Shown piece after piece: positions 5,261 to 62,903 of a stretch of 64,000 nucleotides of DNA. This DNA is from a virus, in IMG/VR virus record IMGVR_UViG_3300048580_000994, positions 18,430-82,429 of that record. One strand, given 5' to 3'. Positions within the stretch are counted from its first letter, which is position 1. Each line of letters begins with the position of its first letter. The translations under genes and the position numbers were made by a program. The notes below the pieces were generated by a model. That model ran no database searches. It was not told where the DNA came from and worked only from the letters and a program-made list of their open reading frames with translations.

Positions 5261-5785
5261 ATGAAAATACATGAAATCATATATGAGACACTTGGTGCTA
5301 CGTCATATCCATGGAAGTTAGTGGATCGATCAGCATCTAGCAATACCTATGAGTTTTTCAACGCACAACAGATAAAGTATATTGTAGACTTAATGCACAG
5401 TACTCAATTCTCAGAATTAGTTAAAGCTAAAATCGATATTGCTCGTGTTGTTTTTAGAAATCAAGTTTCAATTGATTCGAGTAAAGAAAATCTACACATC
5501 ACCAATACTGGTGATGCTTGGGGAGTATTCTCTACAGTAATAGATATTATAAAACACGCAATAAACGAGTCAAACTTTGATATTATTGTTTTTGAAGCCG
5601 ACAAGAAAGAGCCTAGTAGGGTTAGGTTGTATTCTACATTTATGTCACGTGTACAGCAAGTCCTGCCTAATTATATTGCAGCACCAGCAGTTGATGCAGA
5701 CTGGCTAATCAGATACAGGCTTGTGAAAAAAGATTCACCTTTGAATACTCCACTATTCATGTCCCCAAAGAAGAAAAAGAAGTAA
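5261..5785 (+). CDS. Hypothetical late protein (MKIHEI leader)
   Basis: GGAGG RBS and upstream TATAAATA. Confidence 0.7.
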   Translation: MKIHEIIYETLGATSYPWKLVDRSASSNTYEFFNAQQIKYIVDLMHSTQFSELVKAKIDIARVVFRNQVSIDSSKENLHITNTGDAWGVFSTVIDIIKHAINESNFDIIVFEADKKEPSRVRLYSTFMSRVQQVLPNYIAAPAVDADWLIRYRLVKKDSPLNTPLFMSPKKKKK

Positions 5786-5845
5786 TTTAAGCCGCTGGTG
5801 TTGGTTCGATTCCCTTCTGGTCCACGGAAAGATAAATAATATAAT

Positions 5846-5930
5846 GCGGGTGTCGCATAGCGGCTATTGCGCTTGCTTGCCAAGCAAGAGACCCTAAAGG
5901 TCATCACGGATTCGAGTTCCGTCACCCGCT
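5846..5930 (+). tRNA. tRNA-Gly(GCC) with long variable arm
   Basis: Anticodon arm CTTGC-TTGCCAA-GCAAG; extra arm GACC-CTAAA-GGTC. Confidence 0.85.
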
Positions 5931-5952
5931 CCTAATAATATTTAAAGTTTGA

Positions 5953-6023
5953 TTGGGTATCGTCTAGTGGTAAGACAAACGGCTGTTAACCGTTCAACCG
6001 AAGTTCGAATCTTCGTACCCGAA
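5953..6023 (+). tRNA. tRNA-Asn(GTT)
   Basis: Anticodon arm AACGG-CTGTTAA-CCGTT. Confidence 0.9.
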
Positions 6024-6045
6024 CTGAAAAGATAAATACAATAAT

Positions 6046-6117
6046 GGATCGTTAGCAAATCAACTAATGCGGCCGGCTGCAACCCGGCAGGACTCAGGGT
6101 AGCACTGAGACGGTCCT
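6046..6117 (+). tRNA. tRNA-Cys(GCA)
   Basis: Anticodon arm GCCGG-CTGCAAC-CCGGC; U73. Confidence 0.8.
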
Positions 6118-6153
6118 CTACAATTTTTAAATAAATAAATTGACATTTGATGA

Positions 6154-6792
6154 ATGAATATGATAAATAATAATATGACAAACTGTTATCAATATTATTA
6201 TTTATATCAAATCACTAATTTATTAGATGGTAAAATTTACATAGGAGTTCATAAAACAAATAATCTTGGTGATGGTTATTTGGGGTCTGGTACCCTTTTA
6301 TTGAGGGCATATAATAAGTATGGTGTTGAAAATTTTGAAAAACAAATTTTAGAATTTTTTGATAATGCTGATGATATGTTAATGAGAGAAAGTGTGGTTG
6401 TTAATTTGGATTTTATTAATAGGGATGATACTTATAATATTAAAACTGGTGGATTGCAGGGAATACTTGACCAACATACATTAAATAAAATAAAAGAAAC
6501 CTTTAAACTTAAAAAAATAAGTCATGGTGAGACAAATACACAGTTTGGTACAATGTGGATAACCAATGGGGTTGACAATAAAAAAATTAAAAAAGATGAT
6601 GAAATACCTTTTGGTTGGAAAAAGGGGAGGGTCATGCCATCTGATTGGGGTAAAAATATTGGGGATAAATTGAGGGGTAGAACTTTAGAGGATATTCAGG
6701 GTTATGAAAAAGCCCAACAAACTAAAAAACGTATTTCAAATTTTCAAAAAAATAAATATGCGTTGATTAAAAATAAAAATGATCTGGAGTGA
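6154..6792 (+). CDS. GIY-YIG homing endonuclease (T4 Seg-like)
   Basis: YLYQITNLLDGKIYIGVH...YLGSG...KYGVENF...YNIKTGG; located in a tRNA cluster like T4 segB. Confidence 0.9.
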   Translation: MNMINNNMTNCYQYYYLYQITNLLDGKIYIGVHKTNNLGDGYLGSGTLLLRAYNKYGVENFEKQILEFFDNADDMLMRESVVVNLDFINRDDTYNIKTGGLQGILDQHTLNKIKETFKLKKISHGETNTQFGTMWITNGVDNKKIKKDDEIPFGWKKGRVMPSDWGKNIGDKLRGRTLEDIQGYEKAQQTKKRISNFQKNKYALIKNKNDLE

Positions 6793-6922
6793 ATACCAGG
6801 GAGGACGATTACAAGATCGTAGATGAATGTCAGGATAATACAGAACCCCGGCTATAGGATGTTAAAAATATTTGTAAATACTATATAATCATATTATAAT
6901 AATGAATGATGGAGAATAAAAA

Positions 6923-7576
6923 ATGCGATTGCGAGAATTTTTACCGGGCAAATCATCTATTCAATTAATCTCTGAAGCCAGAGCGATGAAGGGTGATTAT
7001 GCTGCAGATGAACAATTCAAGGAAACGTTTTTATCACCATTGAGTAAAATAGTTTTTGAAAATAATTGGGAAGATTGTGATAATATTGATATTGATGGGC
7101 AAATAATGAAAATTATTGCCAGTAAATCGGATGACACTTATGCTGTTGGATATTGGAGAAATGATGAAAATCAGAAAACCATTTTTCAAAGAATTTGTGT
7201 TATACAACTTATTGATTGTTTGTATTTGGCGTCTAAGTTAAAAACTTATCCAGAAATGCGCCAAGTGACCATGATTTTTGTCACAGAAAGTTTTAGGAGT
7301 ACTAAAATTGCAAAAAAGATGTATCAATGGTTTGTTCAGCAAGGATTTTCATTAATAGGTGATGTTGAGCAATATTTTGGTGCAAGAAAATTGTGGTGTG
7401 CATTGTCAAAAATTTCCACTTTGCGTGTTGATGTTGTGAATAGGAACACAGGAACTATTATTCAACAAGGTAGAATTATAGAGCATGGTGAATTGGACCA
7501 TGAATTTGATAATGAGATATGGGCTTATGATAGTAGTAAAAATGATATTGGTTTGATATTGATTGATATTAGGTAA
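6923..7576 (+). CDS. Putative GNAT-fold protein (MRLREF leader)
   Basis: IFVTESFRSTKIAKKMY resembles acetyl-CoA motif A; GARKLW motif. Confidence 0.55.
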   Translation: MRLREFLPGKSSIQLISEARAMKGDYAADEQFKETFLSPLSKIVFENNWEDCDNIDIDGQIMKIIASKSDDTYAVGYWRNDENQKTIFQRICVIQLIDCLYLASKLKTYPEMRQVTMIFVTESFRSTKIAKKMYQWFVQQGFSLIGDVEQYFGARKLWCALSKISTLRVDVVNRNTGTIIQQGRIIEHGELDHEFDNEIWAYDSSKNDIGLILIDIR

Positions 7577-7583
7577 AAATTAT

Positions 7584-7658
7584 GGTGGTCGTGGCGGAAT
7601 TGGTAAACGCAACGGATTGTGATTCCGTAAACTGGGGGTTCGAGTCCCCTCGATCACC
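7584..7658 (+). tRNA. tRNA-His(GTG)
   Basis: G-1:C73; anticodon arm ACGGA-TTGTGAT-TCCGT. Confidence 0.92.
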
Positions 7659-7670
7659 CGGATAAAAAAT

Positions 7671-7759
7671 GGTGTAGTCCCATAATGGTATTGGAGCGGA
7701 TTGCTAATCCGTCGGACGTTAATAGCGTCTTCAGAGTTCGAGTCTCTGCTACACCGCCA
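7671..7759 (+). tRNA. tRNA-Ser(GCT)
   Basis: Anticodon arm GCGGA-TTGCTAA-TCCGT; long arm; GCCA end. Confidence 0.92.
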
Positions 7760-7767
7760 ATAATAAT

Positions 7768-7840
7768 GGCTCGTCTGTTGGTTTTTACAGCACAAGGTCT
7801 TCGAAACCATGATGGAAATGTTCGATTCATTTACGGGTCA
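7768..7840 (+). tRNA. tRNA-Arg(TCG)
   Basis: Anticodon arm GGT-CTTCGAA-ACC; acceptor GGCTCGT/ACGGGTC. Confidence 0.65.
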
Positions 7841-7893
7841 CTAAAAATTTTGGGCGATGGAAACGGGATTCGATTTCCCACAGGTCCACTTAT

Positions 7894-7983
7894 GGGTAGT
7901 AAAGTAGCTGGGAGCTACACAGGTTTGGAAAACCTGTTGGCGTTGAAAAACACGCTGGGGATCGAGACCTCTGCTACCCGCCA
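7894..7983 (+). tRNA. tRNA-Ser(GGA)
   Basis: Anticodon arm CAGGT-TTGGAAA-ACCTG; long arm; GCCA end. Confidence 0.85.
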
Positions 7984-8003
7984 ACAACAACTGAGGTACT
8001 ATC

Positions 8004-8201
8004 ATGATAGAAATAATTGGTGGTATATTAATAGTATTATTGATATTATTAAACATTCGTTTTAGAAATTTATTGAAAGATGCAAGAGATACCAGTCTTA
8101 AACTTTTAGAACAATTGGAAGAAAGTAAAAAACAAGTCATTGAATTACATAAACAAAATTCCCTATTAATGGGAGAAAACGTAAAGTTAAAATCAAAATA
8201 A
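8004..8201 (+). CDS. Small membrane-anchored coiled-coil protein
   Basis: N-terminal TM helix followed by heptad-rich tail; GAGG RBS. Confidence 0.6.
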   Translation: MIEIIGGILIVLLILLNIRFRNLLKDARDTSLKLLEQLEESKKQVIELHKQNSLLMGENVKLKSK

Positions 8202-8206
8202 ATTAT

Positions 8207-8288
8207 GCCGGTGTGATGTAATGGTAGCCTTGCCTCGCTTAAAACGAGGTGTCCTTGAGACGTGCAGGTTCAAATCCTGTCGCCGGTA
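8207..8288 (+). tRNA. tRNA-Leu(TAA)
   Basis: Anticodon arm CCTCG-CTTAAAA-CGAGG. Confidence 0.9.
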
Positions 8289-8361
8289 CTTAAAAAATAT
8301 TGACAATACCCAATCTATCATGCAAAGATGATAATCTAATTTAATAAAAGGAACCAATTGA

Positions 8362-9099
8362 ATGGAAGATATGATTAATCGTGTATATTTGGGTAGTTGT
8401 TTAGATTTAATGGCTAAAATTCCAGATGGTAGTATTGATTTGGTAGTCACCGACCCGCCTTATGGCATTTTATTTGTGAACAACCATTCGAAAGAACAAT
8501 TTGAAGAAATATCAAATGATGATTTCGCAAGCACAAAACCATTGTTAGAAGAATATTTTAAAGAGTGCTATCGTATTTTAAAAGAAGATTCTGCTATTTA
8601 TAGTTTTTGTTCTTGGCATAAGGTTGATTTTTTTAAACAAGAAATTGAAAAATATTTTACAATGAAAAATTTATTATTATGGTCTAAAAAGGATGGTGAT
8701 ACCCCAACATCGAAGCCAATTCATACTACAGGTGATTTGGCTGGTGCATATGGAGTAAGTACCGAGTTGATAGTTTATGCCCATAAAGGTAGGTGTTTGA
8801 ATCGTGGGAAGCGTTATATTGATTTATTGTCATTTCCAAGGGAAAACACTAAATTAATAGGACACCCGACACCAAAACCACCATTGTTGCTAAAATTATT
8901 GATTGAAAATTCAAGTGATAAAGATGCAATTATTTTTGATGGATTCGCTGGTTCTGGGTCGACAGGGGTTGCCTGTGCAATGTCTGGAAGAAGATTTATA
9001 GGTGCAGAATTAAATGATGGTTATCATAAAATTGCCACAAAAAGAATTAATGATGAATTTGAAAAAATGAGTAACCCGTTAATTCAATGGGGGGATTAA
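8362..9099 (+). CDS. DNA N6-adenine/N4-cytosine methyltransferase (beta class)
   Basis: TDPPY, HPTPKP and DGFAGSGST motifs. Confidence 0.92.
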   Translation: MEDMINRVYLGSCLDLMAKIPDGSIDLVVTDPPYGILFVNNHSKEQFEEISNDDFASTKPLLEEYFKECYRILKEDSAIYSFCSWHKVDFFKQEIEKYFTMKNLLLWSKKDGDTPTSKPIHTTGDLAGAYGVSTELIVYAHKGRCLNRGKRYIDLLSFPRENTKLIGHPTPKPPLLLKLLIENSSDKDAIIFDGFAGSGSTGVACAMSGRRFIGAELNDGYHKIATKRINDEFEKMSNPLIQWGD

Positions 9100-9119
9100 T
9101 CCCCCATTGCTGGTTAATT

Positions 9120-10193
9120 TTATGGTATAAAATCACATTCCCATATGGTAATTAAATTAAATCCATCAGATAATAATTTATTTTCTCTTATTAATGTTGA
9201 TGTATATAGTTCACCGAATGTTTTCTTATTATTTGAATTAATATCTGATGGATTAAATTTAGATGGATTGCCGTGCCAATAATCACCATAAAATTCATAT
9301 ATAGTATTTGTTTCTGGGTTAAAGCCATCAACTTTTATTATTGATTTATCTGATAAAACTAATTCGATCTGTCTCATATTTTTTGGGATACCAATTGTGT
9401 CAAGCCATAAATTTTCTTTTTTACTTTGCAAACAATTTGGGCAATTCGAACCTGTCAAATGTAAGTCAGCTCTTTGTTGAAAAACACCATGTTTTTTACA
9501 AATTATATTGATTTTTGTTCTGGTGTTTATATATTCAACTAATGTGTAGTCATATTTATCACCATGAATTTTCTTGGCTTGTTCGATATATTCTGTTGTA
9601 GTTTTTCTGTTATTACCATAACATTTACTGCAACCAATACCAAGTAAATGTGTCCCAGGTGGTTGTTCAAAGTCGCCATGAATTGGGCAAGTTATTATTA
9701 TTTTTGTGGCTGCATTTATATATATAGTTTTATCATAATTATAAAAATTGTTGTGAATTGTTGATGCCTCTTTAATAAATTGTTCTTTTGTTTTTGTTTT
9801 ATTATCTGATGAGCACTTTGGGCATCCATGTCCACTAATATGATTGTCTGGTGTTTGTTCAAAATCACCATGAGTTGGGCATGTTATTACAATTTTATTA
9901 TCTGTTGATGTATAATTTATTTTATCATAATTATAAAAATTGTTGTGAATTGATGATGCTTCTTTAATAAATTGTTCTTTTGTTTTTCTACAACGTTGTG
10001 AGTTTTTTGCTCCTTTACATTTAGGACAACCATAACCTCTAGAATGGTTATCTGGTGTTTGTAAAAATATACCATGAGTTTTACAAATAATTTTTACTTT
10101 TTCTCTGGCTTTTTCATAAATGACAGATGTATAATCATATTTATTATTATGAATTTTTGATGATTTTTCTATAAATTTTAATAATTTTGACAT
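9120..10193 (-). CDS. Homing-type nuclease with tandem Zn-binding repeats (DUF723-like) and C-terminal PD-(D/E)xK/Vsr-like domain
   Basis: Four IICxxHGxFxQxPxxH..GCPKC repeats; VDGF...IYEFYGDYWHG...IWE. Confidence 0.8.
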   Translation of the reverse strand: MSKLLKFIEKSSKIHNNKYDYTSVIYEKAREKVKIICKTHGIFLQTPDNHSRGYGCPKCKGAKNSQRCRKTKEQFIKEASSIHNNFYNYDKINYTSTDNKIVITCPTHGDFEQTPDNHISGHGCPKCSSDNKTKTKEQFIKEASTIHNNFYNYDKTIYINAATKIIITCPIHGDFEQPPGTHLLGIGCSKCYGNNRKTTTEYIEQAKKIHGDKYDYTLVEYINTRTKINIICKKHGVFQQRADLHLTGSNCPNCLQSKKENLWLDTIGIPKNMRQIELVLSDKSIIKVDGFNPETNTIYEFYGDYWHGNPSKFNPSDINSNNKKTFGELYTSTLIRENKLLSDGFNLITIWECDFIP

Positions 10194-10366
10194 AATTTGT
10201 ATCCTTTTTGTATTAATTATATATTATATAATAGTATTTATCTTTTTGTCAATTTTAATGGTGGTTATGGTGCTAAAAACGAACTTTTTTAATCTTTTTG
10301 AATTTTAGTCCTTGACATCTAAGAAAAATCCAGCTATACTATGTGGACAATTTAGGAGTAACGACG

Positions 10367-10594
10367 ATGAACATTCATGTTATTGCGAAGAGCGCCAAGC
10401 AGAACCCCATCACTGAATGGGACGTTAGGATTGTTGGAAGCAATGAAGGAGAGCCTCTTGCCACCATTCGCAAGACTGATGAGGGGATTTTCATTCTTGA
10501 AGGTTTCGCTGAAGTGAAGGTTGGCAATAGTCTCAATGAAGTTAGGGACGAAGCCCAGTTTATTCTTGATAAGATGAGTGTGTTGATTAATTAA
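10367..10594 (+). CDS. Hypothetical early protein
   Basis: TTGACA..TATACT promoter and AGGAG RBS; start moved to MNIHV. Confidence 0.6.
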   Translation: MNIHVIAKSAKQNPITEWDVRIVGSNEGEPLATIRKTDEGIFILEGFAEVKVGNSLNEVRDEAQFILDKMSVLIN

Positions 10595-10602
10595 AAGGTT
10601 AT

Positions 10603-10683
10603 GCCGGAGTGATGTAATGGTAGCCTTGACGGTTTTAGAAACCGTTGTCGAAAGACGTGCAGGTTCAAGTCCTGTCTCCGGTA
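10603..10683 (+). tRNA. tRNA-Leu(TAG)
   Basis: Anticodon arm ACGGT-TTTAGAA-ACCGT; long arm. Confidence 0.9.
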
Positions 10684-10684
10684 C

Positions 10685-11860
10685 TTATTTTTTGTGTCTT
10701 GTCATTCCTCGCCAGAAACCTTCTGGTATTGTATCGTTATGATTTAATCTTGTATTAATTATTCCATTGGTTATATAAATTTTTCCAGACATAGATGCAC
10801 TTATTTTTTCTTTGTGTTCTTGGGTTTTTGATAAATGTTTGGATGTTATTACTATTGGTTGGATATTATTTTTATCCCAAGTTTGAATTTTTTTTATTAA
10901 TTCTTCGATGGACATTCCGATTCCAGTACCTTTAGTGATATTATCTAAATTGGATAATAATTGACAATTCGCTGGGTGTGATATAATTTTTGGGTCAATA
11001 TTATTTCTCCAGCCATATTCGACTGATATTATATGGTCTCTACAAACACCTTGTTTGTTATTAGTTGAATTGTAGAACCCATATTTTAATAATAAATCAT
11101 AGCCTTGTATATTTGGGTATAAGAAAACATCGAATAAAAATTTACATTCTTTTTTATAGATTTTTTTCTTATCTGTCATTTTTGTACCAGATTGTATTCT
11201 GTAATTTTGGTTTGCTATGGTTAATGTTCTTAAATTAATTCCTATTATTTTTAAAAACATTCCAAAATCACTATATTGGATTTTTAGATAGTTTTTAATT
11301 TCTTTTGCAGACATTTTTTCATTTGTGTATAGTCTATCTAATTCTTTTATTGAATTATTAATGTTTATTTGTGTTTGTTGATTGCCTAATTGAAAATTAA
11401 ATATATTAGCTAATTTTTTTGCAATCGGGAGTTTTGTTGGGTTATCCCACCCTGTGGCTGGTTTTAATTTAGGATGGTATATATTGCCTGTGATTGGGGA
11501 ATATTTAATTTTGGTATGTTGGTATTTGTTTTTTATTTTAATTGGGTTTTGTTTATTAATTTTTAATTTTTCAGATATTTGTTTTTTTGCGGTTTCAGGC
11601 ATTGCCCACCCGGTTTCTTTTCGTTTTTTATTATTATATTTAGCAGAACAAGAACTACTACAAAAATTGTTTGATTTATTATCATATTTTATCAAAATTC
11701 CACAATATAGACATTTTTTTGGGTTTTGGTTATATGTTTTGATGTTTTCATTTTTGGTATGATCGCCATAACATTTTGGTGAACAAAAAGTTGATGTTGT
11801 TTTTGCTGGTATAAATTCTTTTTTACATTCTGGGCATATAGCAGTTTTTTTCATTTGCAT
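10685..11860 (-). CDS. HNH-type endonuclease (Zn ribbons, HTH-like region, HPANC domain, NUMOD-like tail)
   Basis: RDHIIS...HPANC...DN motif; start moved to MQMKK after the CGGAGA RBS. Confidence 0.78.
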   Translation of the reverse strand: MQMKKTAICPECKKEFIPAKTTSTFCSPKCYGDHTKNENIKTYNQNPKKCLYCGILIKYDNKSNNFCSSSCSAKYNNKKRKETGWAMPETAKKQISEKLKINKQNPIKIKNKYQHTKIKYSPITGNIYHPKLKPATGWDNPTKLPIAKKLANIFNFQLGNQQTQININNSIKELDRLYTNEKMSAKEIKNYLKIQYSDFGMFLKIIGINLRTLTIANQNYRIQSGTKMTDKKKIYKKECKFLFDVFLYPNIQGYDLLLKYGFYNSTNNKQGVCRDHIISVEYGWRNNIDPKIISHPANCQLLSNLDNITKGTGIGMSIEELIKKIQTWDKNNIQPIVITSKHLSKTQEHKEKISASMSGKIYITNGIINTRLNHNDTIPEGFWRGMTRHKK

Positions 11861-11890
11861 TTTCTCCGAATAAAGTATATAAATAAAAGG

Positions 11891-11949
11891 AGTGGGACAA
11901 GCCCTTCTCCGATGGGTTTCCAATACTTCCGACGGTGTTGGATACCACT
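11891..11949 (+). ncRNA. Nuclease-divergent sRNA, copy 3
   Basis: AGTGG..AAGCCC-TTCTCCGAT-GGGTTT..CAATAC/GTGTTG..CCACT. Confidence 0.75.
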
Positions 11950-12002
11950 ACTATTTATATTATTTATCATTTTAGTTGTAATTGTCAATATTTAATTTTT
12001 AT

Positions 12003-12078
12003 GGGTGTGTGAAGGGAATTTGGTATACCTTGTGTTCTTAGAAATCACAGTTTGCAGGTTCGATGCCTGTCGCACCCA
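12003..12078 (+). tRNA. tRNA-Leu(TAG) with short variable region
   Basis: Anticodon arm GTGTT-CTTAGAA-ATCAC; acceptor GGGTGTG/CGCACCC. Confidence 0.75.
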
Positions 12079-12093
12079 CTAAAATGTTTTTAT

Positions 12094-12167
12094 GGTCTTA
12101 TAGTGAAATTGGATATAACATCAGTCTACGAAACTGAAGATGGTGGGTTCAAATCCTCCTAAGACCG
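12094..12167 (+). tRNA. tRNA-Arg(ACG)
   Basis: Anticodon arm TCAGT-CTACGAA-ACTGA. Confidence 0.9.
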
Positions 12168-12176
12168 CTTATATTA

Positions 12177-12248
12177 TGGCTGGGCTGCAAGGTGCAGGGC
12201 TGTCTCTCATAAGGACGGATGCGTGGATTCGATTTCCATACCAGCCAC
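12177..12248 (+). tRNA. tRNA(CAT) Met or Ile2
   Basis: Anticodon arm TGTCT-CTCATAA-GGACG. Confidence 0.7.
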
Positions 12249-12259
12249 TACTAAAAAGT

Positions 12260-12368
12260 TTTTGAGCCGTTTATAAAACGTTATCTTTTTTTGTCAAAAA
12301 GACCTGTCAGTTCGACTCTGGCGATGGGCGGATTCCCGGTTTACATGTTTTATTACCATTTGTTCAAA
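12260..12368 (+). ncRNA. Permuted-tRNA scaffold element A
   Basis: TTTGAGC-CG..ATAAAACG-TTATC..[anticodon-like arm, T arm GTCAG-TTCGACT-CTGGC]..TGTTTTAT-TACC-ATTT-GTTCAAA. Confidence 0.7.
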
Positions 12369-12372
12369 AAAT

Positions 12373-12458
12373 GCGGGTAGCAGACATCTGGGGGTGTCAC
12401 CGGTCTTCCAAACCGGCTACTGTAAAAGGTATTTTGGATTCGATTTCCACTACCCGCT
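12373..12458 (+). tRNA. tRNA-Gly(TCC) with long variable arm
   Basis: Anticodon arm CCGGT-CTTCCAA-ACCGG; acceptor GCGGGTA/TACCCGC. Confidence 0.8.
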
Positions 12459-12460
12459 CT

Positions 12461-12593
12461 AAATTTGTGCCGAATAAGGAAGATTATCTCAAAACTGTGT
12501 GTTGTGATTTTCGAATGTCACCATCTTTTCGAAGATGTAGCTCAATGGTAGAGCAATAGTCAAAAACACTTCTTTAACACCTTGCATAAATTT
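12461..12593 (+). ncRNA. Permuted-tRNA scaffold element B (acceptor closed by TTCG)
   Basis: T arm, then CATCTT-TTCG-AAGATG, then D arm TAGCTCAATGGTAGAGCA inside the conserved scaffold. Confidence 0.8.
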
Positions 12594-12600
12594 AAAATTT

Positions 12601-12735
12601 AAGAGCCGTATGAAAAATGTTATCCTGTTAAGATCGAAGTCGTGAGTTCGATTCTCACTTACCCCGCTAAAAATATATTATGGGGTAATAACTCAGTGGT
12701 AGAGTGCGTAAAGTGTTTTTCAACCATTTGCTCTT
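12601..12735 (+). ncRNA. Permuted-tRNA scaffold element C: circularly permuted tRNA-Asn(GTT)
   Basis: 3' half 12622-12666 precedes 5' half 12682-12708; joined they give anticodon arm CGATC-CTGTTAA-GATCG and acceptor GGGGTAA/TTACCCC-G. Confidence 0.85.
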
Positions 12736-12739
12736 ATAT

Positions 12740-12812: not shown

Positions 12813-12815
12813 CGA

Positions 12816-12945: not shown

Positions 12946-12950
12946 ATTTT

Positions 12951-13023: not shown

Positions 13024-13028
13024 CTAAA

Positions 13029-19090: not shown

Positions 19091-19663
19091 TCAATTAATG
19101 TTTGAGTACTCATTTTTGACTTGTTCAAATATTGTATTTGGCAATTCTACTTGTAATAAATTTTTTAAATGTTTGATACATTCTTTTACTACTGCTACTG
19201 TTTCTACCAAATGTCCATTATTGCCTCTAACATCTGTTGGTGTGTATTCTCTCCAATATTTAATTAAAGTTTCTCCGTGTGTTGTTTTCAATTTGTTATT
19301 TACTGCGAAACCGAGTATGGATGCTTTATTGTTGGAATTATAAATTTTCCCTGTTACGTAGAATTTAAATTTTGTTTTTCTTTGACGGTTTGGGTTATTG
19401 CGTAATACATCATTATTATCAAAGGTATCATATGAAGCATCATTTCTTACCATTTCCACTTGAAAGTTTGGTTTTATTAATTTATTAAGTTTGTTTGCGA
19501 CTATTTTTAATTTATTGATTGTGTATATATATTCTTTACCTTCTTCTTCGAATGGTTCATCGAACAATGTGTTTTTGGCTGCAATGACTGATTTTTTGAT
19601 TGCATTGAAATCTTCGTTTATTTTGGTAGCTTCCATTAATTTTCTCATATCTGTGGCTGACAT
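19091..19663 (-). CDS. Hypothetical late protein (DMRKLME leader)
   Basis: AAGGAGA RBS and upstream TAAATA. Confidence 0.7.
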   Translation of the reverse strand: MSATDMRKLMEATKINEDFNAIKKSVIAAKNTLFDEPFEEEGKEYIYTINKLKIVANKLNKLIKPNFQVEMVRNDASYDTFDNNDVLRNNPNRQRKTKFKFYVTGKIYNSNNKASILGFAVNNKLKTTHGETLIKYWREYTPTDVRGNNGHLVETVAVVKECIKHLKNLLQVELPNTIFEQVKNEYSNIN

Positions 19664-19776
19664 AATAATTTCTCCTTAAAATTTGTTATATAAATATATT
19701 TATTTTTTCCATAAAATCGCTTGACTAAAAATTAAAATCTGTTATACTGATTTAATCAAATGATGGAGTGACTATT

Positions 19777-22981: not shown

Positions 22982-23026
22982 CTAAAAATTTGATAAATAC
23001 TTTTAACTCTAAAATGGATTCCAATT

Positions 23027-23521
23027 ATGCGTTTAAATGATTTATCGGAAATTAAAATTTATTCCTTACAACCTGTTGATTTTTCACCAGAACAATTGGA
23101 TGAAATTTGTGACCTTATCTGTACTGGTGGTGAAGTGACAAAAGTAGGATTGGAGAAAAGAATTCGCCAAGCCAAATTAATCGCAGTTGCTGAAAAAGAT
23201 GGTAGATTTGTTGCTTGTTCATCCATAAAAGTCCCAGACCCAATGTATAGAGCTAAAATTATACAAAGGGCAGGTATAATATTTAAACCTCAACTTGAAT
23301 TAGGATGGGGTTTTACCCTACCAGAATATCGCAACCAAAAACTTGGGACAAAACTGAAAGAAGAATTGTTTAAAAACGTCCCCCCAACAAATGTTTATGC
23401 CACTGTTAGATTGAAGAATAAACCAGCCATCAAGGGCATCGAAAAATTTGGGTTTAAGGCTGTTGGAACACCATATCAGGGAATGAGTGGGGATTTGATC
23501 TCCATATTTTTAGTCAGATAA
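23027..23521 (+). CDS. GNAT acetyltransferase (MRLNDL leader)
   Basis: ELGWGFTLPEYRNQKLG motif A; NKPAIKGIEKFGF motif B. Confidence 0.8.
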   Translation: MRLNDLSEIKIYSLQPVDFSPEQLDEICDLICTGGEVTKVGLEKRIRQAKLIAVAEKDGRFVACSSIKVPDPMYRAKIIQRAGIIFKPQLELGWGFTLPEYRNQKLGTKLKEELFKNVPPTNVYATVRLKNKPAIKGIEKFGFKAVGTPYQGMSGDLISIFLVR

Positions 23522-28569: not shown

Positions 28570-28579
28570 CTTATAATTT

Positions 28580-29772: not shown

Positions 29773-29959
29773 CTAAATTCTCCAACAATATCAATGACTT
29801 ACAACTAAAATCCCCCATAAAATTCCAAGAATTATTTCTTGGAATTTTTTTTATTGACAAATCATCAAAAATGGGACAAGATGATAAATAATAGTATGGA
29901 AAGAAATTCCATTGGGATTTTTAGAAGTTCCATATTAATCCAAGAAGGAGGATACAATT

Positions 29960-30599: not shown

Positions 30600-31187
30600 A
30601 TGAGATTGTATGAAATAACACGAATAACAAAAAACTCCCAAGCCACCAGAATATTAAAAAGATCTGGGTGGGAAATTGCTGGTGAAGGCGCGAACGCTAC
30701 TGTGTATTTTCGTGAGGACAAACCATATGTTTTAAAAATATTTACTCCTTATGATAGTGCGTTTGTTGCTTATATAAAATTTTGTCAAAAAAATTCAAAC
30801 CCGCATTTCCCTAAATTTTATAAGGATATTGTTAAAATAACTAAAAATTTGTGTGCTATTAGAATGGAGAGGTTGTATCCATTGGATGAAACAGAAGAAA
30901 TTATAACAGGGTTAGAAATATTGGCTTCGTATATTTCAAAATATTCTATTGATCCATCGTTTCTTTCGCATTCACCAGAAAAATTAGAAAATTTTTTGAA
31001 AGAAGTGGTTGAAAAACGAAATGATGTTCTTAATTATTTTGATGAATCTGTGGTGGCAGCTGCAGAATTGGTACCTGATATTGCTAAAAATAGAGGACAT
31101 TTAGATATGCATCCACGTAATTTTATGCAACGATTGGATGGTACATTAGTTTTTTCTGACCCTATTACTACTTTTTTTGGGAGATAG
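30600..31187 (+). CDS. Ser/Thr protein kinase-like protein (MRLYEI leader)
   Basis: GEGANATVY Gly loop, VLK, MERL, DMHPRN catalytic loop, SDP. Confidence 0.8.
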   Translation: MRLYEITRITKNSQATRILKRSGWEIAGEGANATVYFREDKPYVLKIFTPYDSAFVAYIKFCQKNSNPHFPKFYKDIVKITKNLCAIRMERLYPLDETEEIITGLEILASYISKYSIDPSFLSHSPEKLENFLKEVVEKRNDVLNYFDESVVAAAELVPDIAKNRGHLDMHPRNFMQRLDGTLVFSDPITTFFGR

Positions 31188-31189: not shown

Positions 31190-31615
31190 ATGAGATTGTA
31201 TGAACTATCATTAGTTTCCAAAAAATGGTTAAATTCACCCACTGAAGGATTTTTGGAACCAACTGTGGAAAACATTTCGAAGGCGAAAGAGTTTGTATTT
31301 CGTAAATGGAAGGAGCGTGCTATTGAGCGAATGGAACGTGAACCATTAGATTTATCCACTGCTTGTAAATTCAGTTCATTATTTGTGAAGATGGTATTTG
31401 GCGGGACGATAAAGGGGACATGGGAGCATCAATACAATGACATTAATGGGGTAGTGGTTGACCTAAACAGCGATGCTGGGGACGTTTTAAGGCTACTGGA
31501 GCCACATAAGCATGATAGAAGGTTCATTGGTAACAGGGAGCATAATGAGTCGTTAGAGTCTTGCATTCCAAGGGTGAAACGTTGGGTAGAAGAATTTCAT
31601 AATAGTGTCAGTTAA
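31190..31615 (+). CDS. Hypothetical protein (MRLYEL leader), possible papain/transglutaminase-like fold
   Basis: ACKFSS...EHQYN...VVDL spacing suggests a Cys-His-Asp triad. Confidence 0.5.
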   Translation: MRLYELSLVSKKWLNSPTEGFLEPTVENISKAKEFVFRKWKERAIERMEREPLDLSTACKFSSLFVKMVFGGTIKGTWEHQYNDINGVVVDLNSDAGDVLRLLEPHKHDRRFIGNREHNESLESCIPRVKRWVEEFHNSVS

Positions 31616-44067: not shown

Positions 44068-44943
44068 TTATTTGTTAATCCACCCATCTGATAAGGTTCC
44101 ATCTTCGTACATGACTTTCTGTGGGGTAGCTTTGAAATATTTTTTAAAAACATGTCTAAATAATACTTTACAAAAATCAAAAAATCCAGCTTCACGTTGA
44201 CCTTCTGGTTGAACATTAAAACAAGAACGTTTTAATAACACTTTTGACTTTACATTCCAATGGTGGGAAATATCTGTTTGACAACCAAATGCGAAAGGTG
44301 ATTTCATTTTTATTCCCATTATTTTTTCATATGGTATAAATTCATCGCCGGGAACATTTTGGAGTTCGTTTAATTTAATTTCCCCTACACCAAAAGATGA
44401 CAATAACTCTATAGCTTTTCTCAATTCTTCTTTAGTGTCGAGTTCCCCTTTAACGATGTTGAGATTGATTCGTATTTTATGCCCATATTTTTCAGAAATT
44501 TCTTTTAATTGTTGGATTCGATTATGTTTGGACGATGCTTTTAGGATTTCGTTATTTCGTCCCCAATCATAATGTTGGATTGAAACGTTTATACCATCAA
44601 TCAATTCCAACACCCCTTGAACATCTGGATTCCAAATCATGGCTGCTTTTGGTAGGGAAGTTGTCATGAAAATTTCTTTCAAACGTGGACGAACACCTTG
44701 GACATAATGGAGTAATTTTTTTGGGTTGAGAAAAGGTTCACCACCAAGGATCAAAATGGTTTCACAGCCACTTTTCAAAGTGTTGTTGATCATATTTTCA
44801 ACATCTTGTCCTTGATTATCAATTCCATCTCGTTCAATACAAAATGAACAATCGTTATCACAAGATTTGATAAATCTTATGTCTAATGAATTATAGAATT
44901 TACCATCACAAGAATTAATCTTGAGGGGGTTTTTTAGTGGCAT
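44068..44943 (-). CDS. Radical SAM protein
   Basis: CDNDCSFC (CxxxCxxC), LGGEP, INVS. Confidence 0.9.
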   Translation of the reverse strand: MPLKNPLKINSCDGKFYNSLDIRFIKSCDNDCSFCIERDGIDNQGQDVENMINNTLKSGCETILILGGEPFLNPKKLLHYVQGVRPRLKEIFMTTSLPKAAMIWNPDVQGVLELIDGINVSIQHYDWGRNNEILKASSKHNRIQQLKEISEKYGHKIRINLNIVKGELDTKEELRKAIELLSSFGVGEIKLNELQNVPGDEFIPYEKIMGIKMKSPFAFGCQTDISHHWNVKSKVLLKRSCFNVQPEGQREAGFFDFCKVLFRHVFKKYFKATPQKVMYEDGTLSDGWINK

Positions 44944-45269
44944 CCACCACTCCAGCCCATTCTGCTACTTTTGGTTTGATGACAAGCTACAGCTTTTTTC
45001 TTTTTATCTATGGCTGGTTTTTTTGGTTTTGGACTATTTTCAAGTTCTTCATCATCTTCTTCGATTAGTTCGTCTTTGTCTAATCTACCATGACAACCAC
45101 CACCATGACAACCTGCAGATTCATTAATAAGGTCAATTAAATTGATCCACAATTTTTTATCTTTCTTGGTATAAGCTTCTGTTAAAGCATTGATGATTTT
45201 GTCTTTTAAAGATGGTTGTGTTTCAACGTCAACACTTTCCATTAATTTTCTCATATCTTGTGAACCCAT
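44934..45269 (-). CDS. Protein with repeated GCH/ACH motifs, candidate radical SAM substrate
   Basis: AGCHGGGCHG, VACHQ, C-terminal GWSGGCH; overlaps the rSAM start; AGGAG RBS. Confidence 0.65.
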   Translation of the reverse strand: MGSQDMRKLMESVDVETQPSLKDKIINALTEAYTKKDKKLWINLIDLINESAGCHGGGCHGRLDKDELIEEDDEELENSPKPKKPAIDKKKKAVACHQTKSSRMGWSGGCH

Positions 45270-45371
45270 AATTAATCTCCTAAATAGTTGGTATAATTTA
45301 TTTATCATTTTGTTGACATATTGTGATTCTTATTATAGGATAATATATTATAGATGATGGAGGCAATATTT

Positions 45372-46286: not shown

Positions 46287-46928
46287 TGAGGTAATTAATA
46301 TGAAGATAACATTTCATCAATCTGTCGTATCATTGGTAAATTTTTGATGGGACGAAAAAGATTGGACATATTTTCAAATCAAATGATTTATACAATGCTC
46401 ATTTGTATGAAGATGGTTCTGTGATTTCTGGAAAACTTTTAAGAGATGTTAAATCACAAGTTAGAGATAAATATAAATATAAATATAAATATAAAGATAA
46501 ATAACGTTTTATAATGGAGATATGATTATGAGATATAATGAATTTGGTGGTGAAATAGCTAAAAAAGAAAAAAGGTCTTTCTTGATTAACCAATATAATA
46601 ATGAATTTGATGATATGGTTTCTTTTATAGGTTGCGTCGAAGATGTTGAAAGATTGTTCGGTATAGAGTTTGCTTGTGCTGTTGAAAATGGTGTTCCATT
46701 GTTTTTATCACAAAGCGACGAAATCATTGACAAATATGATGGGGAAGTTATTGACACGATTTTTAAATACAACGGGAAAGTGGTTGATACTTCTGTAAAC
46801 CCTTGTAGGTTTGAATTTTTATACAATGCAGACGCCCACAGGGATGGTAGTGAAGAGTTCACCAAGCCAAAAATTATTATTACAGGCAAAGGTTCTCGTT
46901 CTTAATACAGAAATGATTTTTATTTTCG

Positions 46929-55797: not shown

Positions 55798-55887
55798 GGG
55801 AGGGTGGGTGAGTGGTTATAAACCAGCTGTCTACTAAACAGCCATACGTCTTAAAGCGTATCAAGAGTTCGAATCTCTTTCCTCCCG
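55798..55887 (+). tRNA. tRNA-Ser(ACT)
   Basis: Anticodon arm GCTGT-CTACTAA-ACAGC; long arm ATACG/CGTAT; G73. Confidence 0.88.
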
Positions 55888-56058
55888 CTTATAGTATTTT
55901 TTGGTTAAAGAGAAAGACGACTAACCATCGACCCCACTGTGTAGGGGCAGACACTGCCAAGGATGTTATCTGTGGTGGATAATATCGCAAGGTGGGAAGC
56001 CAATATGGGAACCCTTAAAATTGAACACAGACCAAAAATTATTAAATAGCGAGGAATA

Positions 56059-56493
56059 ATGACTGAAACTTTGCATTGTGTTATATATATGAGTTCTTCT
56101 TGGAATAAAATGAACAACGCCGAACTTGTTTCCCTTACAGAAAAAGCATCTATGAAAAATAAAATATTGGATGTTAGTGGTGTGTTACTTTATCATGATA
56201 TGCATTTTTTACAAGTCCTTGAAGGAAGTGAACCTTTATTAAATAAATTATATGAATTGATACAGAATGATAAACGTCATTATGGATTTATTACTTTGTA
56301 TGATGGGAAAATTAAAACAAGAAATTTCCAAAATTGGGGCATGGCATTGGTTAATGTGGATAATCTCAAAACAGAAAATGTAGAATTGTTCAAAACAATT
56401 GAAAATGCTACCCCTTGGGAAACCCCACAAACCACAATGAATTTTCGTGTTGATAATCTTATTAATGCATTCAAACAAGCTGTTGGATATTAA
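56059..56493 (+). CDS. BLUF-domain blue-light sensor
   Basis: IYMS...N...VSGVLLY..FLQVLEG...IQNDKRH...RNFQNWGM. Confidence 0.92.
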   Translation: MTETLHCVIYMSSSWNKMNNAELVSLTEKASMKNKILDVSGVLLYHDMHFLQVLEGSEPLLNKLYELIQNDKRHYGFITLYDGKIKTRNFQNWGMALVNVDNLKTENVELFKTIENATPWETPQTTMNFRVDNLINAFKQAVGY

Positions 56494-58729: not shown

Positions 58730-58803
58730 GCTCCTGTGTCCCAACTGGCAGAGGAATGCGACTTAAAATCGCAGTGTTATCGGTTCGAATCCGATCAGGA
58801 GCA
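58730..58803 (+). tRNA. tRNA-Leu(TAA) with short variable region
   Basis: Anticodon arm TGCGA-CTTAAAA-TCGCA. Confidence 0.85.
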
Positions 58804-58830
58804 CGAAATAAAAAGTATAAATAGAGTATT

Positions 58831-60104: not shown

Positions 60105-60433
60105 ATCCTCCCCATATCTTTTTCCAAAAGTTCTTCGATCATAAGTGACTCATACCAAATCGAGGCAATCCTATCATAATCATCTTTTCTTCTTCTCAAT
60201 TCCAACGTTACTTTTTTAGTTTCTGCCTTTTGTTCTTCCAATAGATTTTTAATCATATCCTTATTTAAATTTGACATAATACTGTCCTCCATAATATAAA
60301 TATTGTTGTATAAGAAAGAAAAAGTGGATACCTCCATTTTCACTGATTAATAATGTTAGAGCATTATTAATCTCTTTCTTATATATCTATTTATCACTTT
60401 ACCCAAAAAAGTGGCTCAAATAGATGAAAAAAT

Positions 60434-60670
60434 TCATTTTTTTGATTTATATTTTTCCTTATTTTTGATGCTGATTTCTTCTTTATGGGTTTCATAATAT
60501 TTTTTCTTATATTCTTTTAATTTATCAGTGACATAATTAGCATTGACAACTCTTTGACATTGCACACAATTTCCATTTCCGGTATATCGGTCTGATATAT
60601 GTCCTTTTGGGCAAGGCTTTCCTGTATTATACTGTGAAAGCCCCAACGCTTTAGCTTCTCTCCTTTTCAT
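60434..60670 (-). CDS. Small Zn-binding protein
   Basis: YNTGKPCPKGHISDRY...CVQC motif. Confidence 0.65.
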   Translation of the reverse strand: MKRREAKALGLSQYNTGKPCPKGHISDRYTGNGNCVQCQRVVNANYVTDKLKEYKKKYYETHKEEISIKNKEKYKSKK

Positions 60671-61365
60671 CCTCTTCCTCCAAATTTCAACATAAAAATC
60701 ATTTTATCGTTTGGTTTAACGATGCAACGATTTTCGTCTAACTGAATTTTATGTTTTTCGATCCAATTTTCTATTTCTTTAGTTTTATCTTCGTCATTTA
60801 TGAACCAACCTTCTCTTATTATATGACTATCTCTATCAAATTTGGTTATTGCTGGTTCGAATAATTTATGAACATCTCCATTTTTGGTCCATACAATGAC
60901 TTCTAAATCACCGTTTTCGTACCAAGATGCATATGCTGGTTCGTTTTCTCTGTGTATCTCACCATTTTTATACCATGTTGCAGTGTGTACATCGCCGTTA
61001 TCATAACAGTCAATTGATGCTGGTTCGTCATTTTCTCTGTGAAGTCTACCATTTATATACCATAATTCTTTTTTTAACTGTCCATCTTGGCAATACTCCA
61101 ACCTTGCTGGGCCATTTTCTCTATGTAGAACATCATTTAGATACCAACTTTCTGATGCTTTTTTGCCATCATCATTGTAGAATATCATTGCAGGACCATC
61201 TTCTCTGTGGCGGCGTCCATCAATAAACCATTGTTCATACTTCCCGTTGGTGTGTTGGTCCCAACATTGATGGGCTGGACCATCTTCCCTGTGTAGAACA
61301 TCATTTAGAAACCATTCTTCGGATGCTTTTTTGCCATTTGGAAAATATATTATTTCTGGGTTCAT
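60667..61365 (-). CDS. HRExGPA-repeat (MORN-like) protein, paralog of 27471-27911
   Basis: About six HRE(D/N)xPA repeats; ends IFMLKFGG. Confidence 0.75.
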   Translation of the reverse strand: MNPEIIYFPNGKKASEEWFLNDVLHREDGPAHQCWDQHTNGKYEQWFIDGRRHREDGPAMIFYNDDGKKASESWYLNDVLHRENGPARLEYCQDGQLKKELWYINGRLHRENDEPASIDCYDNGDVHTATWYKNGEIHRENEPAYASWYENGDLEVIVWTKNGDVHKLFEPAITKFDRDSHIIREGWFINDEDKTKEIENWIEKHKIQLDENRCIVKPNDKMIFMLKFGGRG

Positions 61366-61710
61366 AATTAATCCTTTTTATATAATTTATCCCATTTTGT
61401 GACTGACTTTAGGAATGTTGATGCTTCAATGGATGATGGTGGTAATCCTTTTCGTCTTTTGATACTATGTTGTATAATTGATTCTAAAGATAAATGTGGT
61501 GGTTCATACAATGGGTGGTTTATTGGAAGTTCGTCTTCTTTAGTTTTTCCAAATACCCCTTTTAACCATGTTATAATATTCATCTCATTCACCTCAAATT
61601 AAAACTCCATTAATAGTATATAGGATATTTACCCATTGATGCAATAAAAAATCTCTTGACAAAATTTGAAAACGTGGTATTATCTATATATCAACTTTGG
61701 GGAAAACATC

Positions 61711-62163
61711 ATGAAGATCGAACTCAAGGGTTTCAAGTATGCTGCTTTTGCCAGTGACGAAACTCATTGTTATGAAGCGACTGTTTATGTGAATGGTAAG
61801 AAGGCATTTTATGCTTCCAATGAGGGTCGTGGTGGTCCTGATTTTTATCGTCCTATTGACAAGGGCTTGTATGAACAGGCTGTTGCGTATGTGAAGAGTC
61901 TCCCTCCCCATTCAGATAAGTATGGTGACATGGAAATGGACATGGAACTGTTCATTGGTGATTTGGTTGATGAAAAGTTGGCTGAGAAGGAAGTGAAGAA
62001 GCTATTGCGAAAGACTGTTATGGTTGATGGTGGGAAGCTTTACACTTTGAAGGCACCTTATTCTGCGGCACTTGAGGCTCAGATTATGAAGAAGTATCCC
62101 ACTGCGACTGTTCTGAATGCGATTCCTTTTGATGAAGCTGTGAAGGTATTTCTTTCGCTTTAA
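61711..62163 (+). CDS. Hypothetical early protein
   Basis: Own promoter; SDETHCYEA...NEGRGG. Confidence 0.65.
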   Translation: MKIELKGFKYAAFASDETHCYEATVYVNGKKAFYASNEGRGGPDFYRPIDKGLYEQAVAYVKSLPPHSDKYGDMEMDMELFIGDLVDEKLAEKEVKKLLRKTVMVDGGKLYTLKAPYSAALEAQIMKKYPTATVLNAIPFDEAVKVFLSL

Positions 62164-62255
62164 AGAAAAAATTGTTCAATGAAAGCACCATGAGAAATCG
62201 TGGTGCTTTTTTGTTTTTGTGCTAAATAGTATTGCAACAATTTAGGAAATTTAGA

Positions 62256-62903
62256 ATGAGATTATATGAATTAGACAAGATGAAATTCAATCATGCCAAA
62301 GAATTTCTTCAAGACATTGATCAAGGGCGTGGACGAATAAAGGAATTTATATCTGAATATCCTTGGTTGGTTGAACATTGTCGCAAGAAGGCTATAGAAG
62401 AATTGGGGAATGAAATTTCTGTTTATCGTGGGGTAACGTTATACAAGCCATTGCGAAAAGAAGCCATTGTTAGTACCACTTTGGATTGGCAAGTTGCGTA
62501 TGGGATTATAGATAGCAGTCCTGGTGTAATTTTTAGTCACAATGAAACGATAGTGACGAAGAAGGCGTTGTTGCGTTATAAAATTAGTCCAAATGATATA
62601 ATGATATGGATTGATGCTGCGTTACCATTTGTCAAGGCTGCGATTGGGAAGCGTGAAAATTATAGGATTGAGAATCGTTATTCTGAATTGGTTCGTATTA
62701 GGAGTGTTTTAGAATTTTTGGATAAGAATCCTGAGCGTGAAATTATAGCGAATGTCGGGCAACTATCTCCAAGGGTTTTGGAATTTGAGTCTCATATGGA
62801 TGGAAGGACGAAGATGGCAATGTTCAGGGAATTCATGGATGGAAAGAAGTCCAAAGAATTGACACCTGAAATGGAGATAGAGTTTCGGAATTTTCTTGAA
62901 TGA
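62256..62903 (+). CDS. Late protein (MRLYEL leader), possible ADP-ribosyltransferase-like fold
   Basis: VYRG...STT...ERE spacing resembles R-S-E ARTs; upstream TAAATA. Confidence 0.5.
   Translation: MRLYELDKMKFNHAKEFLQDIDQGRGRIKEFISEYPWLVEHCRKKAIEELGNEISVYRGVTLYKPLRKEAIVSTTLDWQVAYGIIDSSPGVIFSHNETIVTKKALLRYKISPNDIMIWIDAALPFVKAAIGKRENYRIENRYSELVRIRSVLEFLDKNPEREIIANVGQLSPRVLEFESHMDGRTKMAMFREFMDGKKSKELTPEMEIEFRNFLE

Follow-up and report, generated by a model that had tools for sequence, protein, structure and literature searches.

Unrelated proteins encoded in a fragment of an uncultured phage genome begin with the same short leader, M-[R/K]-[L/I]-x-[E/D], and in the cultured Pseudomonas phage PA5oct starts of this kind mark proteins of the virion. 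The fragment is a single 82,429-bp virus record (IMGVR_UViG_3300048580_000994, the contig), of which the stretch analysed here, the window, comprises bases 18430–82429 (64,000 nucleotides, nt); genes are named below by their start in the window. The leader motif is real, modular, enriched among gene starts and linked to an upstream TAAATA motif, and what is new here is that it is tied to the virion proteome of a cultured phage. An earlier note on this DNA had proposed a packaging tag for a set of injected host-modifying enzymes. We consider it somewhat probable that the leader is a tag that loads proteins into the head and is trimmed by a protease, as in the head-internal proteins of T4. Modularity, the I/L-x-E sequence, the TAAATA link and the PA5oct virion association speak for the proposed tag, whereas agreement with the sequence found on the T4 internal proteins (IPs) was not obtained.

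A modular leader on unrelated proteins

All eight N-termini listed in the earlier note, six of the form M(R/K)(L/I)x(E/D) and two of a DMRKLME type, were borne out at their positions. M[RK][LI]x[ED] begins 6 of the 128 called genes of at least 40 amino acids (aa), against 0.27–0.62 expected from position-specific residue frequencies, and none of 20,000 column shuffles reached six such starts. Genes were called with a simple self-written caller, which returned 129, one of them overlapping a tRNA-like match. Position 6 is L, I or F in all six bearers. When all six frames of the 82-kb contig were scanned for M[RK][LIVFY]x[ED][LIFV] followed by 40 codons or more, eight matches emerged; seven are called gene starts, including an additional MRYNEF at 46528, and the eighth, at 12371, falls on a tRNA-like gene. 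The same scan found no internal copies of the motif. In 8/9 leader proteins, counting both leader types, an [LI]xE site ends at residues 5–18.

The bearers are unrelated, as had been claimed for them: BLASTP among the six first found gave no pair at E<1e-3. The two DMRKLME proteins are alike over their first 28 residues only. Arginine, which five bearers have at position 2, is outside the eight commonest residues at that position, where lysine ranks first (18/128). The shared residues are encoded by differing codons (AGA/CGA/CGT, TTG/TTA, GAA/GAT), thus indicating conservation at the protein level. A mobile DNA cassette as the origin of the leader was ruled out, since both the upstream sequences and the codons differ.

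Modularity is clearest in the protein family of gene 62256. An exhaustive HMMER search found 58 homologues, ten of which start with the leader motif (e.g., MRLSEI, MRIEDF and MKIHEL). In an alignment of 32 rows (the 62256 query and 31 of the 58 homologues), nine rows start at most five residues from the conserved core, and in 23 the extension is six residues or longer; [LI]xE is present in 17 of these 23, compared with 5.7 expected when the same residues are shuffled. An AlphaFold model of 62256 built on this alignment has a mean confidence (pLDDT) of 95.1, and its only low-confidence part is residues 1–10, which form coil and average 64 (at least 92 elsewhere). The open reading frame (ORF) list begins this frame at a TTG (62232), and the ATG at 62256 has AGGA 9 nt upstream. 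Family and structure matches of other bearers also start past the leader: at residue 23 in 5261 (Pfam DUF6934), at residues 20–32 in 6923 (Atlas structure matches to acetyltransferase-like clusters, TM score 0.61–0.76) and at residue 46 in 23027 (Pfam Acetyltransf_1, 32.3 bits against a curated cut-off of 20.7). The leader is a detachable N-terminal module outside the folded domain.

Within the 32 rows of the 62256 family, R58 and Y108 are invariant, conservation is 90% or higher at S73, E160 and E162, and the consensus sequences VSTSLD and ExEVIAD give an R / S-T-S / E-x-E pattern that is typical of R-S-E ADP-ribosyltransferases (ARTs). This conserved pattern and weak fold matches weakly suggest that the 62256 product is ADP-ribosyltransferase-like. 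The top VIA-align match is pertussis toxin S1 (Z 5.3, root-mean-square deviation 4.3, 123 aligned), which falls below the stated noise level of the tool, as do many further ARTs among the matches (Z 3–5). All Atlas structure leads are below 0.9, and Foldseek of the model against the PDB returned nothing at E<=1e-3. The protein has no PDB sequence relative and no tblastn match in cultured phages; a search for related loci in the viral contig collection found no relative of the family, and the family profile gave no match in PA5oct, Xanthomonas phage X1 or Campylobacter phage CP21.

For 30600, phrog_15752 (T7 gp0.7-type kinase) matches residues 15–190 (E 1.1e-12), alongside a weak APH match (E 0.047) and one partial tblastn match in cultured phages. 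No Pfam or PHROG family at E<=1e-3 and no tblastn relative in cultured phages was found for 31190, no Pfam family for 46528, and neither a family (Pfam, PHROG) nor a tblastn match in cultured phages for the 190-aa DMRKLME protein. A single-sequence AlphaFold model of 23027 was unusable (mean pLDDT 42.8). The enzyme identities given in the earlier note thus hold for 23027, a GNAT acetyltransferase above the Pfam cut-off, whereas the kinase, ART-like and GNAT-like (6923) labels rest on weaker matches.

It is improbable that the leader has no common function and merely represents the ancestral N-terminal strand or helix of each family, short amphipathic starts being frequent in AT-rich phage proteomes. 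Simple inheritance is conceivable because the leader is kept in distant homologues of two families (CP21_180, a CP21 homologue of 6923, and the ART family), and the motif is both short and post hoc. However, there are six to seven bearers where fewer than one is expected from the position-specific composition of the proteome, and five of them have the arginine that is rare at position 2. Leaderless homologues of 62256 begin at the core, with residues 1–10 lying outside its confident fold, and the virion association described below is specific to the full motif.

TAAATA motifs and the PA5oct virion proteome

Across the contig as a whole, TAAATA is no more frequent than expected (179 copies; 194 expected), and its commonest form is GATAAATA. 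It lies 15–80 nt upstream of 5/7 leader genes but only 22/122 others (Fisher p=0.0045), and it is also found upstream of both DMRKLME genes. The leader is therefore enriched behind TAAATA. The broader statement of the earlier note, that the motif precedes each gene or its operon, stands for these five genes and the DMRKLME pair and not for 30600 and 31190, for which the nearest copy (29885–29890) is about 710 nt upstream; their membership of an operon behind that copy is an assumption. The TAAATA of 62256 directly follows a hairpin and T-run at 62185–62218, and AGATAAATACT is located 31 nt upstream of the tail-fibre gene. Upstream regions form two largely separate classes, one with sigma-70-like TTGACA-N16-18-TATAAT sequences and one of TAAATA type. 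Upstream of 46528, four of the five TAAATA cores, which lie within 38 bases, are arranged head to tail with 6-base spacing (GATAAATATAAATATAAATATAAATATAAAGATAAATA).

PA5oct was reached through EST35_0349, a homologue of 5261 (41% identity over 64 aa) that is annotated 'structural protein, ESI-MS/MS' (electrospray ionization tandem mass spectrometry, MS), begins with MHLFELF and is preceded, at 28 nt, by AGATAAATA. PA5oct also has a PF03420 protease and a Gp23-family capsid protein. Its record (MK797984.1; loci L009–L014) flags 93 coding sequences as detected by ESI-MS/MS, a number that the summary of the PA5oct paper likewise gives, and the test set of 425 ORFs covered 91 of these 93. Starts of the form M[RKH][LIVFY]x[ED][LIFV] are MS-positive in 7/9 cases, compared with 84/416 among the others (p=4e-4). 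Decoy motifs show no virion link: 2/13 are MS-positive without the acid at position 5, 2/9 without the basic residue at position 2, and 11/41 for M[RKH][LIVFY] alone. Leaving out EST35_0349 gives 6/8 (p=0.0015), and additionally leaving out one member of the single paralogous pair among the nine motif ORFs gives 5/7 (p=0.0055). The motif is strongly associated with MS-detected virion proteins in PA5oct.

The MS-detected bearers are EST35_0150 (MKINDI), 0205 (MKLFEV), 0230 (MRLDEI), 0238 (MKIKDI), 0349 (MHLFEL), 0380 (MRLNEI) and 0381 (MKILEF), and some PA5oct bearers have GATAAATA upstream. In PA5oct, TAAATA is found upstream of 37/93 virion-protein genes and 35/334 other ORFs (p=7e-10), and GATAAATA lies 15–80 nt upstream of 17/93 MS-detected virion genes and 8/334 other ORFs. 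Because TAAATA marks virion genes in PA5oct, these counts support its reading as a putative promoter of late or structural genes in such phages, and GATAAATA is a candidate late (virion-gene) promoter of PA5oct. The available text of the PA5oct paper lists only TATAATA and TTGAC as promoter motifs; its main text, as far as available, uses neither 'N-terminal' nor 'prohead protease' and mentions no N-terminal motif.

The same data could reflect a motif that marks late or virion-associated proteins without being a cleaved head-loading tag, for example an assembly or interaction helix elsewhere in the particle or an aid to expression or stability. We regard this as unlikely. The TAAATA and MS-detection links point only to late expression and co-purification, not to cleavage or head location. 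According to the available text of the PA5oct paper, the MS list also includes enzymes that its authors call virion-unrelated, and MS detection is therefore no proof of head-internal location. Most late or virion proteins nevertheless lack the motif: its bearers are only 7/93 MS-positive proteins, and no annotation among the seven refers to tail, baseplate, neck, portal or capsid. Decoys that share the first three residues have no virion link (11/41), and the codon differences between the genes make an mRNA-level effect less likely. EST35_0150 (MKINDIITE) is furthermore situated between the genes for the portal and the PF03420 protease, a position corresponding to that of the T4 core proteins gp67 and gp68.

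Related phages and genomic setting

The contig is about a third of the genome of a T4-type jumbo phage; CheckV completeness is 33%, from which a genome size of about 250 kb is probable. It encodes T4-type topoisomerase II subunits, a tail-fibre protein, a dCMP deaminase, NAD-salvage-like proteins and numerous HNH and GIY-YIG homing endonucleases, together with at least 32 tRNA genes (ARAGORN 32; Rfam 29 matches). Megablast of the contig gave no match. The best topoisomerase match is that of X1 (50% identity), and no cultured phage is close. X1, CP21 and PA5oct, each of which has at least one protein in common with the contig, all possess a prohead protease of the T4 gp21 family (PF03420). The same proteins are also recorded on a contig of 129 kb. 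Extension by an exact 39-base end pattern found no match in viral or metagenome contig collections, and word-based protein searches with 30600, 23027 and 5261 returned only self matches or a 97% copy.

Leaders of this type recur in other phages. In one metagenome locus (L005), three consecutive genes start MMISELLEE, MKIHELTDN and MKIHELLEA. The last encodes a homologue of the ART-like protein, the 120-aa gene directly upstream (MKIHELTDN) has no family, and the next upstream (MMISELLEE) matches an RNA-ligase-like PHROG from residue 12. Campylobacter phages IBB_35 and CP21 carry the 6923 homologue; CP21_180 starts MMKFSDFLEEQ and adjoins the gp6 baseplate gene, and the available texts of the papers on the two phages make no mention of 'gene 2-4' (IBB_35) or 'ORF180' (CP21). 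Leader counts are low in X1 and CP21, where about 2/8 and 4/4 six-frame motif matches, respectively, are plausible real starts; the X1 match at 53640 differs from the annotated start. The second leader type, M[RK]xLME, is found in none of PA5oct, X1 and CP21, and a look-alike (MSEMKQLMES) begins a 90-aa gene in a metagenome phage locus (L004). A limited literature search on capsid targeting sequences (CTSs), which returned papers on T4, SPN3US, P1 and vaccine vectors, met in the source text available no description of the motif for PA5oct-type or uncultured phages. We tentatively suggest, with less confidence than in the tag itself, that the leader could be a cross-lineage virion-cargo code of T4-type jumbo phages (among them PA5oct-like, Campylobacter-phage-like and several uncultured lineages) that can be as short as 5–6 residues and is movable between genes.

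In the metagenome phage with the MKIHEL genes, positions 5629–9968 of L004 encode PhoH, proteins resembling ClpP and DnaJ, and a 757-aa protein that matches an ATP-dependent protease PHROG; PA5oct has annotated genes for ClpX, ClpS, ClpP, ClpA, DnaJ and PhoH at 169742–195842, and both phages may belong to a single broad lineage. These genes bear on a further alternative, in which the leader is a tag for regulated proteolysis or unfolding, for instance by phage Clp-type machines, and sets the lifetime of an enzyme instead of its location. The four annotated Clp proteins of PA5oct and the protease and ClpP-like genes near the leader genes of the L004 phage would fit such a role, and cleavage behind Glu-5 would leave a new N-terminus of Leu, Ile or Phe, which are N-degron-type residues in bacteria. 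This alternative is nonetheless highly improbable. The present contig has no Clp gene (Pfam, PHROG), no Clp tag of this form was met in the limited literature search within the source text available, and a proteolysis tag leaves both the bearers in purified virions and the prohead-protease-like sites unexplained.

Genes and sequence elements of the window are collected in Table 1. Most of its tRNA genes form an array interspersed with HNH and GIY-YIG homing endonuclease genes, and leader genes 5261 and 6923 are located within this array. An element at 12373–12457 matches the Rfam tRNA-Sec model (49.1 bits; gathering score 47) and is not called as a tRNA by ARAGORN; it may be a long-arm tRNA instead of a true selenocysteine tRNA. 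Paralogous homing endonuclease families (identity up to 60%) occupy 1618–4253, 13095–14135 and 31846–32646, as well as 16873–17751 of locus L001, and identical 22-base stretches precede start codons of these paralogues (CCGAAACCGGAGATTATGTCAA twice, TTTAGACTGGAGATAAGTCAAA twice). The 111-aa DMRKLME gene overlaps the start of the radical-SAM gene by 10 bases, and the two proteins may act together. Several small genes, seven in all, have their ribosome-binding site within a recurring 5' leader, (G)GACAATTTAGG(G)AG; a sigma-70-like promoter is present as well in five of them, and 31694 and 62256 have TAAATA instead. Among the accessory genes, scores are 8e-24 for the FliN C-terminal domain, 6e-89 for LpxC, 5e-43 for the GGDEF diguanylate cyclase and 1e-25 for the BLUF blue-light sensor; such host-like genes indicate a Gram-negative, motile host.

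Table 1. Leader-bearing genes, TAAATA motifs and other elements (window coordinates; pI, isoelectric point)
Feature	Position	Strand	Remarks
DUF6934 protein, 174 aa, leader MKIHEIIYE	5261..5785	+	I-H-E at residues 3-5, I-Y-E at 7-9
GNAT-like protein, 217 aa, leader MRLREF	6923..7576	+	phrog_15502; next I-x-E is I-S-E, residues 16-18
GNAT acetyltransferase, 164 aa, leader MRLNDLSE	23027..23521	+	L-S-E at residues 6-8
Protein-kinase-like protein, 195 aa, leader MRLYEI	30600..31187	+	phrog_15752
Protein of no assigned family, 141 aa, leader MRLYEL	31190..31615	+	
Protein, 125 aa, leader MRYNEF	46528..46905	+	from six-frame scan; no I/L-x-E after the leader
ADP-ribosyltransferase-like protein (weak assignment), 215 aa, leader MRLYELDKMK	62256..62903	+	leader precedes conserved core
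Basic protein, 190 aa, pI 9.3, second leader type MSATDMRKLME, then A	19091..19663	-	L-M-E at residues 9-11
Protein, 111 aa, second leader type MGSQDMRKLME, then S	44934..45269	-	just upstream of radical-SAM gene 44068-44943
TATAAATA	5226..5233	+	33 nt upstream of ATG of 5261
TAAATA as TGTAAATACT	6875..6880	+	48 nt upstream of ATG of 6923; overlaps weak sigma-70-like site
GATAAATA	22992..22999	+	33 nt upstream of ATG of 23027
GATAAATA	29883..29890	+	precedes gene 29960; sole candidate late promoter for gene row 29960-31615
Five TAAATA cores, last as GATAAATA	46466..46503	+	last core 30 nt upstream of ATG of 46528
TAAATA as GCTAAATAGT	62223..62228	+	33 nt upstream of ATG of 62256
TAAATA as AATAAATA	19697..19702	-	39 nt upstream of ATG of 19663
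GATAAATA	45299..45306	-	35 nt upstream of ATG of 45269
(G)GACAATTTAGG(G)AG leader	upstream of genes 10367, 31694, 42095 (minus), 57151, 57379, 57659, 62256		
tRNA genes	178-13024, 22081-22155, 28498-29773, 33018-33196, 55798-55888, 58730-58804		
FliN C-terminal domain	23675-23908		accessory gene
LpxC	26647-27474		accessory gene
Hemerythrin	33258-33716		accessory gene
GGDEF	37171-38586		accessory gene
BLUF	56059-56493		accessory gene

Proposed function and comparison with known systems

A mechanism is proposed in which M-[R/K]-[L/I]-x-[E/D]-[L/I/F] would serve as a short portable N-terminal address, as do the propeptides of T4 Alt, IPI–III, gp24, gp67 and gp68. The leader genes would be transcribed late from (G/T)ATAAATA-type promoters, and the leader would bind the assembling prohead core, by which the protein would become enclosed in the capsid. 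A gp21-family prohead protease could then cut after the Glu of an I/L-x-E site, either within the leader (L-Y-E, L-R-E or I-H-E) or just downstream of it (I-Y-E ending at residue 9, L-S-E at 8 or I-S-E at 18). The mature proteins would ride in the virion and enter the next host together with the DNA. The predicted cargo comprises an ART-like protein, two GNAT-type acetyltransferases, a kinase-like protein, a DUF6934 protein and two proteins of unassigned family, and the DMRKLME pair may represent a second leader type in which A or S comes after L-M-E. We infer the steps of core binding, cleavage, head-internal location, injection and action on the host.

Several points weigh against a head-loading tag. 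The motif was defined after the data had been seen, the shared stretch is only 5–6 residues long, and N-terminal [LI]xE is only mildly enriched proteome-wide (18/108 proteins, compared with 7–15 in later windows of equal size). The MRYNEF protein lacks any [LI]xE, and in the three MRLYE proteins (30600, 31190 and 62256) L-Y-E is the sole site outside the conserved fold. Position 5 of MRLND is Asp, though L-S-E follows at residues 6–8, and Asp at the cut position stopped processing in T4 (PMC9026906, available text). The register is also unlike that of the T4 IPs, with L/I at position 3 and an acid at 5 compared with Thr at 3 and Glu at 6. Enzyme assignments are weak for 62256, 6923 and 30600. 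The 82-kb contig, an estimated 33% of the genome, yielded no head gene, scaffold or PF03420 protease. Finally, X1, the closest cultured relative by topoisomerase, has at most two plausible bearers, and PA5oct, whose MS list holds the virion-unrelated enzymes mentioned above, is a distant relative in which only 5/129 contig proteins match by tblastn.

Proteins carried in by a phage decide the first minutes of infection, including the takeover of host transcription and the escape from restriction and other defences, and the injected protein set is almost unknown for uncultured and jumbo phages. If the leader is a virion-cargo tag, raw genomes could be turned into lists of candidate injected effectors, and effector enzymes (ADP-ribosyltransferases, acetyltransferases, kinases and RNA-ligase-like proteins) would be readable from sequence alone. 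Foreign proteins could then also be loaded into jumbo-phage heads, and the ART-like, kinase-like and two acetyltransferase cargo proteins would widen the repertoire beyond T4 Alt and the internal proteins. PA5oct is a cultured system that allows a direct test of this rule.

The closest parallels are found in T4 (statements on the cited articles follow their available text). The IP propeptides of 10–19 residues direct proteins to the core, the first ten residues of IPIII being sufficient, and residues 4 and 7 of the CTS are important for targeting and residues 8 and 10 for processing (PMC9026906); the protease gp21 prefers I/LxE (PMC12991175). In the T4 record (NC_000866), ipII and ipIII start MKTYQEFIAEA and ipI starts MKTFKEFTSTTTPVSTITEA. 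The leader described here resembles the CTS of IPI–III in being common to otherwise unrelated proteins, and both consist of Met and a basic residue, then hydrophobic or aromatic, acidic and hydrophobic positions, and end at I/L-x-E. IPI and IPII/III share about seven residues (MKTFKEF, MKTYQEF), and the present bearers share six. In contrast to the 10–19 residues of the T4 CTS, three bearers have no site at residues 8–10, and the 5–6 residues of the leader are fewer than the sufficient ten of IPIII and akin to the six of Alt. The T4 IPs are small basic proteins, whereas the cargo here looks enzymatic and has pI values of 4.7–9.4.

The sequence does not agree with the IP CTS MKTYQEFIAE and is nearer to Alt (MELITEL) and gp24 (MAKINELL). 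Judged by sequence, the leader differs from that of the T4 IPs, fits the general T4 pattern and is closest to the six-residue propeptide of Alt. Alt, which starts MELITELFDE, loses six N-terminal residues at ITE-6 (PMC5694885) and, according to NC_000866, travels in the head and passes into the host. In both Alt and 62256 (MELITE/LFDE and MRLYE/LDKM, the slash marking the actual or putative cut), an ART-type enzyme carries a very short peptide at its N-terminus, with I/L-x-E followed by Leu. Alt differs in its length of 682 aa and in being cut at the C-terminus too, whereas at least seven unrelated proteins bear the leader here. Between the ART-like family and Alt, hhalign detected no sequence homology (probability 0.4%).

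Short N-termini with I/L-x-E are also found in T4 gp24 (MAKINELLRES), gp67 (MEGLIEA), gp68 (MLLIPET), gp21 (MNEPQLLIET) and gp22 (MLKEQLIAEA), and K-I-N-E-L of gp24 is the leader motif displaced by one residue. Unlike the proteins considered here, these are structural or core head proteins (gp67 and gp68 being core proteins in NC_000866) and not accessory enzymes. The PA5oct virion bearers have the same N-terminal motif and differ in that all are of unassigned function. In giant phages of the phiKZ/SPN3US type, head-internal or ejection proteins are likewise cut after Glu by a gp21-related protease, according to the source text available; their propeptides mostly exceed 100 residues and have A/S-x-E, whereas the leader here spans 5–18 residues and has I/L-x-E.

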